NCBI GenBank assembly: GCA_963706955.1
Contig: CAVPOC010000005.1
Span: 64,001-128,000 of the forward strand
Origin: an uncultured Verrucomicrobiae bacterium
Lineage (GTDB): Bacteria; Verrucomicrobiota; Verrucomicrobiia; Chthoniobacterales; Terrimicrobiaceae
Direction: 5' to 3'
DNA length: 64,000 nucleotides
Below are positions 42,001-48,000 of this stretch, piece by piece (within the stretch, counting starts at the first letter, position 1; the number at the start of each line of letters is the position of its first letter). A program made the position numbers.

Positions 42001-45000
42001 TCGGCGCAGCTCAGGAGTAAAAACTTGCCGTCATCCATGAGGATGCAAAGAACACGATGAAAGTCGGAAAGAAAAACAATCGCTCGTCGGCCATTCTGCA
42101 GCATGAACTCCCCAGATTGATAGCCAGGCAGGCTGGTGCCAATGATCTTGCGGCGGGGCCTGAAGTCAGGCCACTGCGTCAGGTCCAAGACGACCGATGG
42201 GCCGAGATTCATTGCAGAAAGCGGAAATCGCCAGCAAAAGATGTCTCCGCGGACAAACAAACGACCATCGGCGATCTCAAAGCGCACGTGCTTAGAGCGA
42301 TCAAGCACTAGAAACGCGAACACCAGCAGACCGGCCGCGACTCCGGCAATCCAAAGTGCTTGGTTGGGCTGATGCGCGAGAACCCCGACAGCCAACTGGA
42401 TGACGACGCTCACTCCAGCGACCAGGAGCGCGCACAAATACCATTTCCGCGGCGTGGTCGCGCGCGCGATGGAAATCGATGCCAGCATCTCTATACCTCT
42501 AGCCCCGCTTTCAAATTAGTTCATCTCACCCCTCGAAGACAACTTCATCTCGGACCCAAAATCCTGAACAAAGAGGACACGAAGTTTGCTAAACCAAAAA
42601 AGTTACCGCGCTATTATCGGCTCAGCGATTTGCGTGCATCAGCTTCAGTGTCCGATCGCTGAGAGAGGCGCCAGCTGGAGAATCATGCTCTGAGTTCTCT
42701 GTGTCTTCTGTGGTTAATAACTAAGCGGCCGGGTGTTGCGGCCCTGAACATTTTGCGCGAAAAGCTTCCATGCACGCGATGGTCCTCGAAACCCCTGGCC
42801 GGCCGCTGGCGGCTCGTTCGGTGCCAATCCGAGATCCTGATCCAGGGGAAGTGCTCGTGCGCGTCTCTGCGTGTGCCGTATGTCGAACCGATCTGCACGT
42901 TGTTGATGGCGAGCTGCCCGATCCAAAACTTCCCTTAATTCCCGGCCACGAAATCGTCGGTCGGATTGAGAGGCTTGGCCAGGCCAGTCAACGCTTCCGG
43001 GTTGGCGACCGCATCGGAATTCCGTGGTTGGGATGGACGTGTGGCAAATGCCAATATTGCCGATCGCATCGAGAAAATCTCTGTGAGCAGGCTCGCTTTA
43101 CAGGCTACACGATCGATGGAGGATACGCCGAATTCACCCTCGCCCATGCTGATTATTGCTATCGACTTCCCGACGCGTTCGACGATGTCTCCGCAGCTCC
43201 TCTCCTCTGTGCCGGGCTGATTGGCTATCGCTCTCTTCGGAAGGCCGGCGATGCGCATCGCCTGGGGATTTATGGGTTTGGCGCCGCTGCCCACATCGTT
43301 GCCCAGATCGCGCGCTTCCAGGGACGCGAGGTTTTTGCATTTACCCGACCCGGGGATGAGAGCGCCCAGACATTCGCCCGCCGTCTCGGCGCGGCCTGGG
43401 CTGGCGATTCCGATAAGCCGGCCCCAGCCAAGCTCGACGCTGCGATAATTTTTGCTCCCGCTGGCGCCTTGGTTCCAGCCGCCTTACGTGCCGTCGATAA
43501 AGGCGGCGTTGTCGTCTGCGGGGGCATTCATATGAGCGACATACCCAGCTTCCCCTACCGGGAACTTTGGCACGAAAAAACGGTCTGCTCAGTGGCAAAC
43601 CTCACGCGCTCGGATGCCGAGGAGTTCTTCAAAATAATAGACCATCTTCCTCTCCGCACCGAGACCCAAACTTTTCCGCTCGATCAAGCGAATGTGGCTC
43701 TTGCCCGCCTGCGCTCAGGTCAGCTCACCGGCGCAGCTGTCCTCGTGACATAGGTGTGCGGATGAGAATCGCCGGTCGGGCATCGGCGAGAAATTCGTAG
43801 CAGACGCCGATTGGCGGATCTTCAGCACCCCGCAAAATCGCCTCCGCACCTCCGAATTCCTCCGAATCTTAACAAACTTGTAAACCCGCTCGACTATTTG
43901 CGGCCGCGGACGCGCGAGGGCGTGGTGCTGCTCAACAACGCATTGCCAGCGCAGTAATTTGGGCCCGCGGTGCCCGCGATTTGGTCCTCGGCGAGCCCCA
44001 CATTCACGTGTAGTAAGAGTACTCGTTTGGAGAAACGGATCTTCCATACCAAACCAACACTCGGACAAATCTTATTGCTGAGCTTCCTCGGGCTCGCCGC
44101 GGCGCTGGGGCTCGTCTTTGCAATTGTCCTGAACGAAACACGTGCGTCGATTATGACCAGCTCGGAGCGCGTGCGGGAGCAGGCCAGTCGGGAGATCGGC
44201 GAACGTGTCGTCAGATTTCTTGCGACAGCGCCAGATACCGTCGCGGCTTTGCAGGAACAGATTAAGTTGAGGCTGATAGATGCGAATGATCCGACAGCCG
44301 TAGAGACCGCCTTGTTCACCTTGCTGCTGGCTAAAAAGCAGATCGGGGAGATCTCTTTCACCCGCGCTGACCAGACCGGATTTGATGAGAACGGAGCAGC
44401 CCAGTTAGCGGCGAGACCGCGCTGGCAAATTAGTGTGGTTCGCTCGGAAACCGCGAGCGGTGAAGAGCAATTCTGGAGCCGACATGTTTACCCGGAGAAC
44501 TCCGGTTTTGTCGCAGAGCGTCAGACTCTTGAACCCGCGAGCTCAGCGACAATGCCTCCATCGACAAAAATGACTGCGATGGACCCGACCAGCCACCTCA
44601 CGTTTGCCACTCCCGCGAGTAAGGAGTTTCAAGGCGAGCTCTTATGGAGCGATCTCCACTGGTCCGAGCTCGATACGGCGCAGCGAGACGAAGAGAGGAC
44701 CGTCGAAGTCAGTGTGCAACAGACCATATCCGAAGCTGCCGGAAAATTCGCCGGGGTGGCGCGCGTCGGCCTGCTTGCCGAACAACTCGATCGCGTCGTC
44801 CAGCTGCGCCTAACCTCAATGCGTGAGCACGATCCGCACCGCATCTTTCTTTGTGATCTCGAGGGTCGTTTAATCACGCGTGGGGTCAGCTCCGACACGG
44901 TGACGCTGTCGGGCGATGATTTGCGTCTGACTCCGCCTGACCTCCCCTCTGAGATCGCTCACGCCCTCGCCGATTCGAAGTTGAACGCCATCGACGGCCA

Positions 45001-48000
45001 TAACCGGGTGATCTCAGGGCATTTTCGACAAGACGGGCGTGAATTCCTGACAACGTTTCGAGCGTTACCGGGAACACAGGACTGGCTCGTTGGAATCGTC
45101 GTCCCGCGCGAGTTCTATCTTGGAAAGCTGATCACAATCCGTAACCACATGCTGATCGCGCTTTCGGTTGTCATGCTGCTACTCTCGGCAGGTGCTATCG
45201 CCATTTTGCGAAGCATCAAGTACGCTCAGGAGCAGATCACTCGAGAAAGCCTGAAGATGAATGCCTTCGACTTTTCGCCCACTCAAACAACTTCCGCATT
45301 TCGGGACGTCAACGAGGTGCTGGAAAGTCTGGAGAAGGCGAAGACGGCGATGCGAGCGATGGGCAAGTACGCACCCGTCGATCTTGTGCGGAAGCTCTAC
45401 GGCGACAAGAAGGAACCTACCCTCGGCGGAGAACTCCTCGAGATTTCGATCATGTTTAGCGATATCAAAGGATTCACCTCGGTCTCCGAAACTCTTACCC
45501 CCAATCAATTGGCGCACGTGCTTGGTCTCTACCTCGAGGAGCTCTCGCGGATTATCCAAAGAGAGACGAACGGGACCATCGACAAGTACATCGGCGACGC
45601 GATCATGACGATCTGGAACGCGCCCGAGCCGGTGCCAGAGCATCCCAAAATGGCATGCCTGGCCGCGTTGCGCTGTTGCGATGCGGCCGCGGCGCTAGGT
45701 CGCACCCCAGACTGGCGGCATCTTTCCCCCTTTCAGACGCGTTTCGGTCTCCATTGCTCCACCGCGCTGGTCGGCCATTTCGGCGCCCGCGATAGGATGA
45801 ACTACACCGCCATCGGTGACGCCGTCAATCTCGCCTCCCGACTCGAGACATTGAATAAACAATATGGTACCTCGATCATTGCGAGTGAATCGATTTTTGA
45901 ACGTGCGCGGCAGAATTTTGATTTCCGCCTTTTGGATATCGTCGCAGTAAAAGGCAAGAGCAAGGCCATCAAAGTCTACGAACTGCTCGGTGCCAGCCAC
46001 ACGGCCGCGGACAAGAGGGAACTCGTCAAAACCTACGAAACTGCGTTCGCGGCCTACCTGGCACGAGATTTCGCGGGGGCAATGAAGATCCTCTCCCGGA
46101 ATGAAAGTGATGCGCCGAGCATTGTGCTTAGACAACGTTGTGAGACTTTCTTGCACACGCCGCCGCCAGCGGATTGGCAGGGCGTTCACATCTCGCTGGC
46201 GAAGTAGCCTTCCCGCAGGCGCTGGGTGGCGTCTTTAGCTGTTTAGTGTAAGGTATTCTCGGCCACCCCCGACACACTGGCGTGACAAAGAAGCGCATCC
46301 TTATTCTTGGCGGCGGATTCGGCGGCGTTTACGTCGCAGTGCATCTCGGACGGATCCTCTCCCGAGAAGAGCTTGAACGAACCGAGATCGCCCTGGTCAA
46401 TCGAGAAAACTATATCGTCTTCCAGCCGCTGCTTCCGGAAGTAATCTCGGGCTCCGTCGAGCTCAACCATGTCATTTCTCCGATTCGACGCATGGCGCCG
46501 CGGACGCGCCTTTACACCCGTGACATCGAGTCGATAGATCCCGTCGCACGAACCGTCACTCTCACCCCGGGCATCCGGCCGACGACCCTGATTCTCGATT
46601 ACGATCAGTTGGTCATCGCCATGGGAACCCGGCTAGATCACTCGAAGATTCCCGGAATGCGCGAACATGCCAGTCCATTCAAGTATCTTGGAGACGCACT
46701 TTACCTGCGCAATCAGCTGGTGCGGATGTTGGAGGAAGCGGAGGCCGAGAGCGATCCGGAACGCCGCAAAGGGCTTCTTACGTTCGTCGTGGCCGGCGGC
46801 GGATTTTCTGGGGTCGAGTGCATAGCGGAAATGAACGACTTTTTGCGCCAAGCTGTCCGCGCCTACCACAACATCACAGAGGCCGATTTGCGGCTGATTT
46901 TGCTGCAGCGCGGCGAACGGATTCTTCCCGAGGTAACGGCTTCTCTGGCCGCTTTCGCCCATCGTCTGCTGGTCGGCCGGGGCGTGGAAATCCGGCTCGG
47001 TGCTAGTCTGCGGGCCGTTACCGCGAATGCCGTAGTCGTGGAAGACCGGACGCAACGGATGGAAACCATCTCCACGCGCACAGCTGTCGCCACGGTGCCG
47101 GCAGGACCTCATCCAATCCTCACTCAACTGCCCATCCCGCAGGATAAAGGCCGAATCGTCGTCGATCAAACGACCGAGGTCCCTGGCTGGCCCGGGATGT
47201 GGGCGATCGGGGATTGTGCCGCGATTAAGCAGGTCGATGGAAACATCTCACCTCCAACCGCGCAACACGCCCTCCGCCAGGCCAAGACCTGCGCCCAAAA
47301 TATTGCGGCGGTGATGCGCGGCACGAAGAAAACTAACTTCGCCTTCACAGGACTTGGAAAACTTGGCTCGCTCGGAAGGCGCTCTGCCGTGGCGGAAATT
47401 CTTGGCCTCCATTTTAAGGGGCTCTTCGCCTGGCTGCTTTGGCGCGGCGTCTACGTGACGAAATTTCCGGGTTTAGACGGTCAGCTGCGCCTGATCGCCG
47501 ACTGGATCTTGGACGTTTTTCTTCCACGAGACATCACGCAGCTTCGGTTATTTAATGATGAGGCCGTCCATCGGGAGCACTTTGAGACCGGAGAGCGCGT
47601 CTTCTCGAGCGGCGATTTTGGCGATAAAGTTTATTTCATGGTTAAGGGAGAAGCGGTCGTCGAGCGCGAAGGTCTTCACGTGGCGACCCTCGGCTGCGGC
47701 GACGTTTTCGGCGAAGCAGCTCTCATCTCCAATCAGCCGCGAAATGCAACAATTCGTGCCATCACGCCTATCGATACGGTCGTCGTTTCGCGACAAGCTT
47801 TCCAACAATTATTGATGCATCTACCGGGACTCAATGAGACGATGCAGCAGTTGATGTCTGGCCGGCTTAAACAGGGACAAGATCTGGCCGGCCTGATGGC
47901 AGAGGTAGGTTCGCAAGGCGACCGAGGAGCCAACCCCGCCAATTCCGCTCAGGGTTGATTCACTCTTGGGTTGTCAGCCGCGAGGCGTTGCCGCAGAGAT

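Follow-up and report, generated by a model that had tools for sequence, protein, structure and literature searches.

The curated set of NADH dehydrogenases of type II (NDH-2) excluded sequences with fused domains (PMC5299459), and some Ca2+-regulated EF-hand NDH-2s are reported there and elsewhere to use NADPH (PMC5299459; PMC11670749). Among cyclic-nucleotide-binding (CNB) domains, Table 1 of Kannan et al. (2007; PMC2246266) has a 'Bact_Pyrredox' class, in which the CNB is covalently linked to a flavoprotein of the pyridine nucleotide-disulphide oxidoreductase type, and the accompanying text considers that 'NADH production' is possibly under CNB control. Direct allosteric control of a fused enzyme by cAMP is found in the mycobacterial acetyltransferase Pat and the Bdellovibrio EAL enzyme Bd1971. 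Our literature search found no description of a family of NDH-2-CNB enzymes, and no biochemical data on any member.

The window, i.e. the whole 64,000-nucleotide stretch analysed, comes from the genome of a soil bacterium and carries two neighboring genes, g01707 and g01708, which on balance probably form a two-part cAMP circuit acting on an electron-transport enzyme. Their features are as follows.

43970..46207, + strand: g01707, predicted 745-aa membrane sensor adenylyl cyclase (ORF with GTG start; Pfam Guanylate_cyc at residues 491-671, E 9.6e-19)
44054..44140, + strand: transmembrane helix 1 of g01707, residues 29-57 (Kyte-Doolittle window 19, peak 2.68)
44141..45127, + strand: periplasmic double-Cache ligand-binding domain, residues ~58-386 (AlphaFold2 and Foldseek; Pfam sub-threshold)
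45128..45223, + strand: transmembrane helix 2 of g01707, residues 387-418 (Kyte-Doolittle peak 2.73)
45440..45982, + strand: class III catalytic domain of the cyclase, residues 491-671 (CyaB and CyaC alignments)
46208..46281, + strand: 74-bp intergenic gap (sequence; scan of 43500-48400)
46282..47958, + strand: g01708, 558-aa NDH-2 with C-terminal CNB domain (ORF with GTG start; Pfam; PDB phmmer; AlphaFold2 and Foldseek)
46294..47283, + strand: flavoprotein core with two dinucleotide-binding folds, residues 5-334 (translation; PMC5299459 motif list; alignments)
47356..47532, + strand: NDH2_C membrane-anchoring region, residues 359-417 (Pfam; model secondary structure; hydrophobic moments)
47575..47817, + strand: CNB beta-barrel, residues 432-512 (Pfam; PDB matches to PKG and PKA; 22-member alignment)
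47707..47760, + strand: phosphate-binding cassette, residues 476-493, with Glu478 and Arg487 (translation)
47830..47916, + strand: C-terminal helix past the barrel, residues 517-545 (model secondary structure, pLDDT 50-64)

The survey's finding, which first drew attention to this pair as a self-contained signalling unit, is confirmed as an observation and partly supported as an interpretation; it gave both ORFs exactly, and put the gap at 75 rather than 74 bp. Scanning 43500-48400 turned up neither a hairpin resembling a terminator nor a sigma-70-like promoter in the gap. The two genes are putatively co-transcribed, although no metatranscriptome contig spans the gap.

Kyte-Doolittle analysis of g01707 gave two hydrophobic segments, the helices listed above, and the periplasmic region claimed to lie between them can now be assigned. 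Pfam places dCache_1 at residues 255-376 below threshold (E 1e-4; 22.4 bits, where the cut-off is 45), and for an AlphaFold2 model of residues 50-400 (pLDDT 85, pTM 0.81) the best Foldseek matches are dCache domains in chemoreceptor and histidine-kinase structures (9heh, E 6e-12; 7psg; 3lic; 5wbf; 6e0a, TM-score on target 0.72). The closest solved relatives of the protein are the cyclases CyaB (3r5g, 2.3e-24) and CyaC (1wc0/1wc1, 1e-21), and alignment to these shows six catalytic residues intact (two metal-binding Asp, Lys, Thr, Asn and Arg), which are retained across every aligned orthologue. The Lys and Thr predict a class IIIb adenylyl cyclase, probably of the homodimer type; of the two messengers originally proposed, they favour cAMP over cGMP.

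For g01708, Pfam recovered the three domains reported before: Pyr_redox_2 at 5-334 (E 8.7e-36), NDH2_C at 359-417 (2.6e-8) and cNMP_binding at 432-512 (1.9e-18). The translation contains GGGFGG, YD, GGGFSGVE, GD and AQHALR, completing the NDH-2 set GxGxxG, YD, GxGxxGxE, GD and AQxAxR of the motif list in PMC5299459. Helices 380-394 and 398-413 are predicted within NDH2_C from the model secondary structure, and the Kyte-Doolittle scan found zero hydrophobic segments in g01708. PDB phmmer matches it to the NDH-2 enzymes 9mqy (2.4e-45) and 4nwz (8.3e-41), and the AlphaFold2 model (pLDDT 86) has TM-scores on target of 0.92 to 4nwz (C. thermarum) and 0.85 to 9mqz (mycobacterial), with lower values, 0.72-0.75, for sulfide:quinone reductases. 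Motifs, Pfam and model thus bear out both a complete NDH-2 core and a genuine CNB domain. The homologue search, which yielded 339 proteins at E<=1e-5, reproduced the fusion as claimed, with PF00027 in 120/120 and PF07992 in 118/120 of the best 120 proteins. The CNB domain is present in 78 of 80 species-genome loci, spread over several phyla, so that the fusion is, on these sequence matches, a large family; variants bear extra CBS, FHA, DoxX or peroxiredoxin modules.

The electron donor of this family is less secure than the name NADH dehydrogenase, under which g01708 had been reported, would imply. Glu272 of Ndi1 has been proposed to exclude NADPH (PMC11670749); the equivalent in g01708 is Gln209, followed by Arg210; of 35 family members, 34 have Gln, His, Ala or Ser at this position and one has an acidic residue. 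Also absent is the WxxG Trp, which is 99% conserved among the 1762 curated NDH-2s in the published motif statistics (PMC5299459), whereas the two plain NDH-2 paralogues of the same genome retain both the Glu and the Trp. Having departed from the curated enzymes at these two points, g01708 is possibly atypical as a respiratory NADH dehydrogenase, and NADPH may be its donor instead; the Gln-Arg pair with the missing Trp is an observation added here for the NDH-2-CNB enzyme. An alternative that we regard as a real, if lesser, possibility keeps the same circuit and makes g01708 a cAMP-gated NADPH:quinone reductase for redox homeostasis or stress defence, which would keep quinols reduced or drain NADPH. 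Family variants fused to AhpC/Redoxin (P0174) or DoxX (P0150) speak for it. However, Ndh2-3 of O. parapolymorpha has Gln at the specificity position and oxidised only NADH (PMC11670749), so an acidic residue there is not a reliable rule, and in Acidobacteriota a multihaem cytochrome c gene ending 15 nt before the NDH-2-CNB gene points to electron transport.

The phosphate-binding cassette, FGEAALISNQPRNATIRA, was verified in the translation of g01708. The Asn after its Arg had been raised as a departure from the usual Ser/Thr; it is no defect: the family consensus motifs given by Kannan et al. have T, G, S or K there (PMC2246266). Glu478, Arg487 and the Gly447-Asp448 of the beta2-beta3 loop are invariant across 22 family members (alignment A1). 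In a wider alignment the cassette Glu and Arg are retained in 31/35 sequences and the cassette is degenerate in 4/35; three of the four sequences lacking the Arg also lack the beta2-beta3 Gly, and co-evolution of these two residues in cAMP-binding domains is described in the same work (PMC2246266). CNB domains of PKG and PKA align over residues 403/404-516, the PKG CNB-A alignments starting at 403/404, i.e. within the helix 398-413 that Pfam gives to NDH2_C. Residues 407-424 are almost all invariant in A1, as are L514, P515, G516, M525 and R528. The helix at 517-545 likely serves the CNB domain as its lid or hinge; model confidence is low for it and for the linker 414-428 (pLDDT 50-75). The domain looks ligand-competent, with the marks of an allosteric module.

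We envision the cAMP circuit as follows. A small ligand would bind the double-Cache domain of g01707 and set cytoplasmic cAMP synthesis; g01708, as a monotopic NDH-2-type flavoenzyme, would oxidise NAD(P)H and reduce membrane quinone, and its CNB domain would bind the cAMP made by g01707. Since the CNB directly follows the second anchor helix, which in the alignments doubles as the CNB N-terminal helix, binding would be expected to reposition the anchor helices shaping quinone entry, changing membrane docking or quinone access and hence turnover, whether up or down. This coupling through a shared helix is suggested by alignment coordinates. The genome also encodes complex I as well as the plain paralogues, which would make g01708 an extra, signal-gated entry point. 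It has 20-21 cyclase domains in 4.16 Mb, so that about 1% of genes would be expected to have a cyclase as direct neighbor. The circuit may not be a private one, since some 20 further cyclases and about a dozen further CNB proteins are encoded.

Gene neighborhoods were compared at the 80 loci. At 27 of them the NDH-2-CNB gene has a cyclase domain no more than 3 kb away (2.1 expected), and at one beyond 3 kb (2.6 expected). The g01707-type dCache-cyclase adjoins it in 21 loci, all from Verrucomicrobiota, directly upstream in 19 and directly downstream in two (L027, L028); order was thus altered and adjacency retained. Claimed conservation of the pair across phyla therefore stands for the fusion and for cyclase enrichment, and not for the orthologous pair. 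Other cyclases adjoin the fusion elsewhere: a GAF-cyclase in Kolteria (L030), HAMP-AC in L012, FHA-AC in L053, and in L060 a PDEase_II-like phosphodiesterase, FHA-GAF-AC and NDH-2-CNB in that order, with overlapping or 4-nt junctions; those of Kolteria and Acidobacteriota are non-orthologous to g01707. Among loci lacking a g01707 orthologue, 6/59 have a cyclase nearby, one of them weak (1.44 expected, Poisson P 0.004). The flanks examined contain no cyclase in 52/80 loci, including all of the roughly 40 Planctomycetota loci other than Kolteria, and in two of five verrucomicrobial genomes without adjacency a g01707-type query recovered no orthologous sensor.

Perhaps the CNB is no cAMP switch, sensing another ligand or serving structure or dimerisation, while the cyclase addresses other targets. 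We consider this improbable. The degenerate cassettes imply that the domain can persist without binding residues, CNB folds with other ligands are among those documented by Kannan et al. (PMC2246266), the genome offers the cyclase many other CNB proteins, and most loci lack an adjacent cyclase. However, Glu478, Arg487 and Gly447 are invariant in the g01708 clade, and four unrelated cyclase architectures, and once a phosphodiesterase-like gene, adjoin the fusion in three phyla. Inherited synteny may account for part of the adjacency kept within Verrucomicrobiota: the orthologous pair is restricted to one phylum-level clade, the tree is compatible with one origin, and in two of the five genomes without adjacency the cyclase lies elsewhere, with no NDH-2 gene beside it. 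Synteny with no functional link at all is very unlikely, given the inverted order with adjacency kept, the recurrence of non-orthologous cyclases, and the lack of any other neighbor conserved nearly so widely (next cluster, 11 loci against 21). A reversed or circular flow, with flavoprotein redox state altering the CNB grip on cAMP as a buffer or feeding back on the cyclase, seems scarcely credible: the tight coupling of anchor helix and CNB speaks for it, but all catalytic motifs are retained, needlessly for a mere buffer, and no CNB protein is known to act in this manner. With the cAMP circuit preferred, a second messenger is probably a direct switch on how electrons enter the respiratory chain.

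Compared with known systems, g01707 has the same Lys/Thr substrate pair as CyaB (P. aeruginosa, 3R5G) and CyaC (Spirulina, 1WC0), but its input module is a periplasmic double-Cache between two membrane helices. We take the 'Bact_Pyrredox' proteins to be thioredoxin-reductase-like. As characterised in PMC2246266, they have tandem CNB domains and another cassette consensus, with Gly after the Arg where g01708 has Asn, and the account of the class there makes no mention of NDH-2, quinone or cyclase neighbors. Canonical NDH-2 (Caldalkalibacillus thermarum 4NWZ; mycobacterial Ndh 9MQY/9MQZ) shares with g01708 the fold, both dinucleotide motifs, GD, YD, a quinone motif of the form AQxAxR and an amphipathic anchor at the C-terminus; g01708 differs in its 140-residue C-terminal addition of CNB domain plus helix, in having Gln-Arg where the acidic NADH-specificity residue would stand and in the missing WxxG Trp. 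The EF-hand enzymes (Neurospora NDE1, plant NDB type) are likewise NDH-2s with their own second-messenger sensor, but are eukaryotic; their sensor is an EF-hand insertion that follows the GD motif and precedes helix 7, rather than a CNB domain at the C-terminus, and their messenger is Ca2+, with no dedicated messenger-making gene alongside. Pat and Bd1971 share the plan of one CNB fused to a catalytic domain, and g01708 matches NCBIfam ActPatMycb56 at residues 433-529 (E 2.5e-7) and Bd1971 chains 6hq3/6hq5 at 438-530; the enzyme under control in g01708 would be neither an acetyltransferase nor a phosphodiesterase, but a redox enzyme bound to the membrane and serving the quinone pool.

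The pair consists of two genes read in the same direction, and the coordinates reported for them in the survey's finding proved correct:

43970-46207, + strand, membrane sensor adenylyl cyclase g01707 (745 aa)
46282-47958, + strand, NDH-2 with a C-terminal cyclic-nucleotide-binding (CNB) domain, g01708 (558 aa)

Three Pfam domains are matched in g01708: Pyr_redox_2 (5-334), NDH2_C (359-417) and cNMP_binding (432-512). Its first glycine motif (GxGxxG, for FAD) reads GGGFGG at residues 10-15 and its second (GxGxxGxE, for NAD(P)H) reads GGGFSGVE at 172-179, including the catalytic Glu179; G10, G12, G172, G174, G177 and E179 are invariant in 35/35 sequences of the fused family (NDH-2-CNB). 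The YD pair is Y107-D108, the GD motif is G310-D311, and the quinone motif, AQHALR at 327-332, is the AQxAxR variant, which occurs in 15% of the 1762 NDH-2s behind the conserved-feature list in the excerpted text of PMC5299459. Among solved structures, the best sequence matches are mycobacterial Ndh (9mqy, 2.4e-45) and Caldalkalibacillus thermarum NDH-2 (4nwz, 8.3e-41). A full-length model built from 35 sequences (pLDDT 86.2, pTM 0.73) gives Foldseek TM-scores on target of 0.77-0.92 with NDH-2 structures (0.92 for 4nwz) and of 0.72-0.75 with sulfide:quinone reductases. The model places helices at 380-394 and 398-413 within the NDH2_C region (359-417 by Pfam), as for a membrane-anchoring segment made of two amphipathic helices. 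We take g01708 to be a predicted NAD(P)H:quinone oxidoreductase with non-covalent FAD.

Two features set the fused enzymes apart from plain NDH-2s. The first is the WxxG motif, whose Trp is kept in 99% and whose Gly in 100% of the 1762 NDH-2s of PMC5299459: it is absent from g01708, where the aligned stretch reads AVATVPAG, and none of the 35 family members has Trp there. The second is Gln209, followed by Arg210, where the second Rossmann beta-strand ends; this non-acidic residue aligns with Glu of C. thermarum NDH-2 and Asp of mycobacterial Ndh. Of the 35 members, 20 have Gln here, 12 have His, 2 have Ala or Ser and 1 has Asp, which makes the position acidic in 1/35. In contrast, the two plain NDH-2 paralogues of the genome (457 aa on contig C12 and 432 aa on C13) both keep the Glu and the WxxG Trp, reading IWAAG at the latter position, and the adenosine end of the nucleotide pocket is therefore remodelled in the fused family. 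The position corresponds to E272 of Ndi1, an acidic residue proposed to exclude NADPH (PMC11670749). It is a fair, though not a safe, reading of these residues that NDH-2-CNB enzymes may use NADPH, because the exception to the acidic-residue rule, a yeast NDH-2 with Gln at this same position, oxidised NADH only (PMC11670749).

The genome also encodes complex I (NuoD). Outside the window, the 457-aa paralogue (- strand) adjoins nuoD (+ strand) at C12:26787-29451, and at C11:65457-66714 (- strand) lies the paralogue most similar to the NDH-2 core (38-52% identity), with His at the specificity position, the WxxG Trp kept and no CNB domain. The C11 copy is split over three frames and thus carries two frameshifts, marking either a pseudogene or assembly errors.

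The CNB match spans positions 2-87 of the 89 in the Pfam profile, and the model forms the expected eight-stranded beta-barrel, with strands between 429 and 503 followed by helices at 504-513 and 517-545. The phosphate-binding cassette, FGEAALISNQPRNA, also given as FGEAALISNQPRNATIRA, contains E478 and R487; such a cassette Glu contacts the ribose 2'-OH and the Arg the phosphate. E478, R487 and, in the beta2-beta3 loop, G447-D448 are invariant in an alignment of 22 close members (68-93% identity), and in a wider alignment of 35 the Glu and Arg are both retained in 31. Three of the four sequences in the wider set that lack the cassette Arg also lack the beta2-beta3 Gly, a covariation that matches the co-evolution of these two residues in cAMP-binding domains described in the excerpted text of Kannan et al. 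2007 (PMC2246266). The survey had counted as a weakness the Asn that follows the cassette Arg; this objection falls away, since the family consensus motifs in Table 1 of PMC2246266 have T, G, S or K there. With its cassette intact, the domain is predicted to be of the cAMP/cGMP-binding kind.

Alignments to the CNB domains of PKG begin at residue 403/404 of g01708, within model helix 398-413, which by Pfam is the second NDH2_C helix. Residues 407-424 are nearly all invariant among the 22 close members, and linker 414-428 is modelled at low confidence. We infer that the membrane-anchor helix may also serve the CNB domain as its N-terminal helix; this would leave a short mechanical path from the ligand to the quinone site. 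CNB domains also occur elsewhere in the genome, outside the window: at C3:635171-637748 a 171-aa CNB-only ORF and, with the former ~1 kb upstream, a 431-aa cyclase ORF form a second cyclase/CNB pair, and at C5:129950-130609 (contig coordinates, - strand), ~2 kb past the window end and 18 kb downstream of the NDH-2-CNB gene, a 1062-aa open frame has two CNB domains.

That homologues share the CNB fusion, as claimed in the survey's finding, was confirmed in a word-indexed search with residues 380-558, which gave 339 proteins at E<=1e-5: among the best 120 of these 339, PF00027 is present in 120/120 and PF07992 in 118/120. An exhaustive search with residues 340-558 was run over 50%-identity representatives, and from the best 150 matches listed we chose 30 with a single matched stretch starting at the query start. 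All 30 have Pyr_redox_2 and cNMP_binding, and 28 have NDH2_C. Extra modules among them are a CBS pair (8), FHA (4), DoxX or a MIP channel at the N-terminus, AhpC/Redoxin at the C-terminus, and a TPR tail. Across an evenly drawn set of Verrucomicrobiota, NDH2_C together with CNB was matched at E<=1e-20 in 26/301 genomes, representing 17/149 genera. A quick ML tree of 75 proteins (six rows were left out for stops or partial matches) follows the phyla, and pairing with a cyclase of the g01707 kind, with its periplasmic double-Cache (dCache) sensor, is restricted to the verrucomicrobial clade.

We note some peculiar loci: (i) L003 has two tandem NDH-2-CNB copies, at 5955-7712 and 7935-9671 (respectively 82% and 88% identical with the query core), behind one dCache-cyclase. 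(ii) L058, L064 and L066 come from MAG records that bear the names Klebsiella pneumoniae or Candidatus Kuenenia stuttgartiensis, yet their NDH-2-CNB genes fall within the Planctomycetaceae clade; these bin labels are probably wrong.

The catalytic domain of g01707 (491-671, Pfam, class III cyclase) has as its nearest solved relatives CyaB of P. aeruginosa (3r5g, E 2.3e-24) and CyaC of Spirulina (1wc0/1wc1, 1e-21), with which its FSDIKGF, DKYIGDAIM and NYTAIGDAVNLASRLE stretches align. Following the CyaC literature, we take the class III residues to be two metal Asp, substrate Lys and Thr, and transition-state Asn and Arg, with Thr in place of Asp marking class IIIb. In the printed alignments to CyaB and CyaC, g01707 has every one of these, as a member of subclass IIIb would, and its catalytic residues are retained by every orthologue aligned. 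This Lys/Thr form, kept in orthologues, leads us to predict cAMP as the product.

Hydropathy supports the two membrane helices described earlier for the cyclase, at 29-57 and 387-418, and finds none in the NDH-2. Between them lies a region whose Pfam dCache_1 match falls below the cut-off on score alone. Residues 50-400, modelled with AlphaFold2 from an alignment of 13 sequences (pLDDT 85, pTM 0.81), match the dCache ligand-binding domains of chemoreceptors and sensor kinases (best Foldseek E 6e-12; TM-score on target <=0.72), a fold in which a long N-terminal helix precedes two PAS-like modules stacked on each other. The 50 top Foldseek rows shown are all dCache-type ligand-binding domains except two integrative or chimeric entries.

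A one-genome-per-species scan for NDH-2-CNB gave 552 relatives, of which we retained the best 80 loci. By tblastn the CNB part is present in 78 of these best 80; L031 and L051 hold a truncated gene only. With an HMM built from the genome's own 21 cyclase ORFs, a cyclase domain was found in 28 of the best 80: 27/80 have a cyclase <3 kb from the gene vs 2.1 expected from the density in the source genome, while >3 kb away 1 was observed vs 2.6 expected. The survey had described the pair as conserved across phyla. This holds only in part: the g01707 orthologue, its periplasmic domain matched, occurs in 21/80 loci, each of them verrucomicrobial (in 19 it is the next gene upstream, on the same strand, and in L027 and L028 the next gene downstream), and outside Verrucomicrobiota it is absent from the flanks. 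Of five verrucomicrobial genomes searched that are without this adjacency, three have the orthologous sensor elsewhere, one of them beside a second, frameshifted NDH-2-CNB copy and another ~15 kb off on the same contig.

Among the best 80, Planctomycetota loci mostly have no cyclase in their flanks; a sulfatase lies downstream in 11 of them, which we read as local synteny. Unrelated cyclases do occur beside NDH-2-CNB: (i) a HAMP-cyclase in L012; (ii) a GAF-cyclase with atypical substrate residues in L030, from Kolteria novifilia; (iii) an FHA-cyclase in L053; (iv) in L060, an FHA-GAF-cyclase that stands between a metallo-beta-lactamase resembling class-II cAMP phosphodiesterases and NDH-2-CNB in an operon-like run. 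Among the 59 loci without the orthologue, 6 have a cyclase vs 1.44 expected (Poisson P 0.004), a test that is inflated by kinship and includes the weak L022. The L022 hit (own HMM, E 5e-5) was set aside as a cyclase, Pfam finding FHA only.

Redox genes were also seen near NDH-2-CNB in Acidobacteriota (L059 and L069) and in Kolteria (L030):

L059:6639-7982, c554-like multihaem cytochrome c, ending 15 nt before the NDH-2-CNB gene
L069:6621-7982, c554-like multihaem cytochrome c, ending 15 nt before the NDH-2-CNB gene
L059:3826-5481, - strand, CNB and 4Fe-4S ferredoxin-type protein, three CNB domains
L069:3960-5621, - strand, CNB and 4Fe-4S ferredoxin-type protein, three CNB domains
L030:5575-7866, - strand, related CNB and 4Fe-4S ferredoxin-type protein, divergently adjacent to NDH-2-CNB

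The same cytochrome family lies downstream of the gene in L053. The CNB-4Fe-4S proteins are thus another kind of redox protein linked to CNB domains.

The window covers C5:64001-128000 of the source genome (4.16 Mb, 15 contigs). In it 74 bp separate the two ORFs, and the nearest public-genome relatives are MAGs of Terrimicrobiaceae and other Verrucomicrobiota. A promoter/terminator scan, uninformative for this phylum, found neither a promoter nor a terminator-like hairpin in the gap and no signal exceeding shuffle expectation. The locus sequence was detected in DNA runs that several studies had taken from soil and rhizosphere, with only small shares (0.05-0.06) in RNA libraries. Short contigs from four RNA or RNA-labelled runs, in which DNA carry-over is possible, match parts of both genes, for example two exact 151-nt contigs of run X16 at 47218-47519, and a 203-nt contig of run X18 with one mismatch at 44643-44845. 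None in these four runs spans 46207-46282. A contig pile at 45570-45624 was discarded as a locus signal, being a conserved cyclase motif from other organisms.

Neighbouring genes were not counted as part of the unit: the upstream alcohol dehydrogenase gene is not conserved, and on the downstream side YdjM, an aldo-keto reductase and a metallophosphoesterase are kept in 4-8 close relatives only. Upstream of the cyclase gene, a region of 216 bp contains a tandem direct repeat, CCTCCGAAT-T-CCTCCGAAT, at 43848-43867; it may be a candidate regulator site, or chance. Two regulatory-type genes lie 3-4 kb upstream of the pair:

39868-40446, + strand, ECF-type sigma factor
40485-41060, - strand, small PAS-domain protein

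Since genes that make or degrade cAMP recur beside a flavoenzyme with an intact CNB domain, direct cAMP control of the g01708 quinone reductase is the best explanation, and one we think reasonably probable. A wider generalization is offered more tentatively, as slightly more apt to fail than to hold in full: NDH-2-CNB proteins would be widespread second-messenger-gated quinone reductases. In them cAMP would control the entry of electrons into the quinone pool directly, at the post-translational level, through movement of a helix that serves both as membrane anchor of the enzyme and as N-terminal helix of the sensor, in effect a ligand-controlled clutch that joins a soluble pool of NAD(P)H to the membrane. 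Variants bearing CBS, FHA, DoxX or peroxiredoxin modules might then form a hub integrating cAMP, adenylate charge and phospho-threonine signals, and the dCache cyclase might tie the enzyme to an extracellular chemical cue.

The control known for bacterial respiratory dehydrogenases is mainly transcriptional; if true, a second messenger that acts directly on one of them would add a new level to bioenergetic regulation. This large family shows good conservation and includes members from cultured strains, e.g. Kolteria novifilia Pan216, so the idea is testable with one purified protein. Drugs are aimed at NDH-2, which has also been proposed to stand in for complex I, and a naturally ligand-switchable version would therefore have value as a tool.

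Full-text searches of the open literature returned no paper that treats an NDH-2 carrying a cyclic-nucleotide domain; the architecture may be listed by Marreiros et al. 2016. The family falls outside the two recent NDH-2 surveys consulted: PMC5299459 excluded sequences with fused domains, so fusions were seen but set aside, and a preprint of 2025 on how NDH-2 evolved (10.1101/2025.10.14.682086), in which the words cyclic, cAMP and fusion do not occur, finds Verrucomicrobiota to have no NDH-2. Among known systems, the 'Bact_Pyrredox' class in the excerpts of Kannan et al. 2007 (PMC2246266) has tandem CNB domains on a pyridine-nucleotide-disulphide oxidoreductase, but its cassette differs from that of g01708. 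The nearest precedent for second-messenger control of an NDH-2 comes from fungi and plants, with their Ca2+/EF-hand NDH-2.
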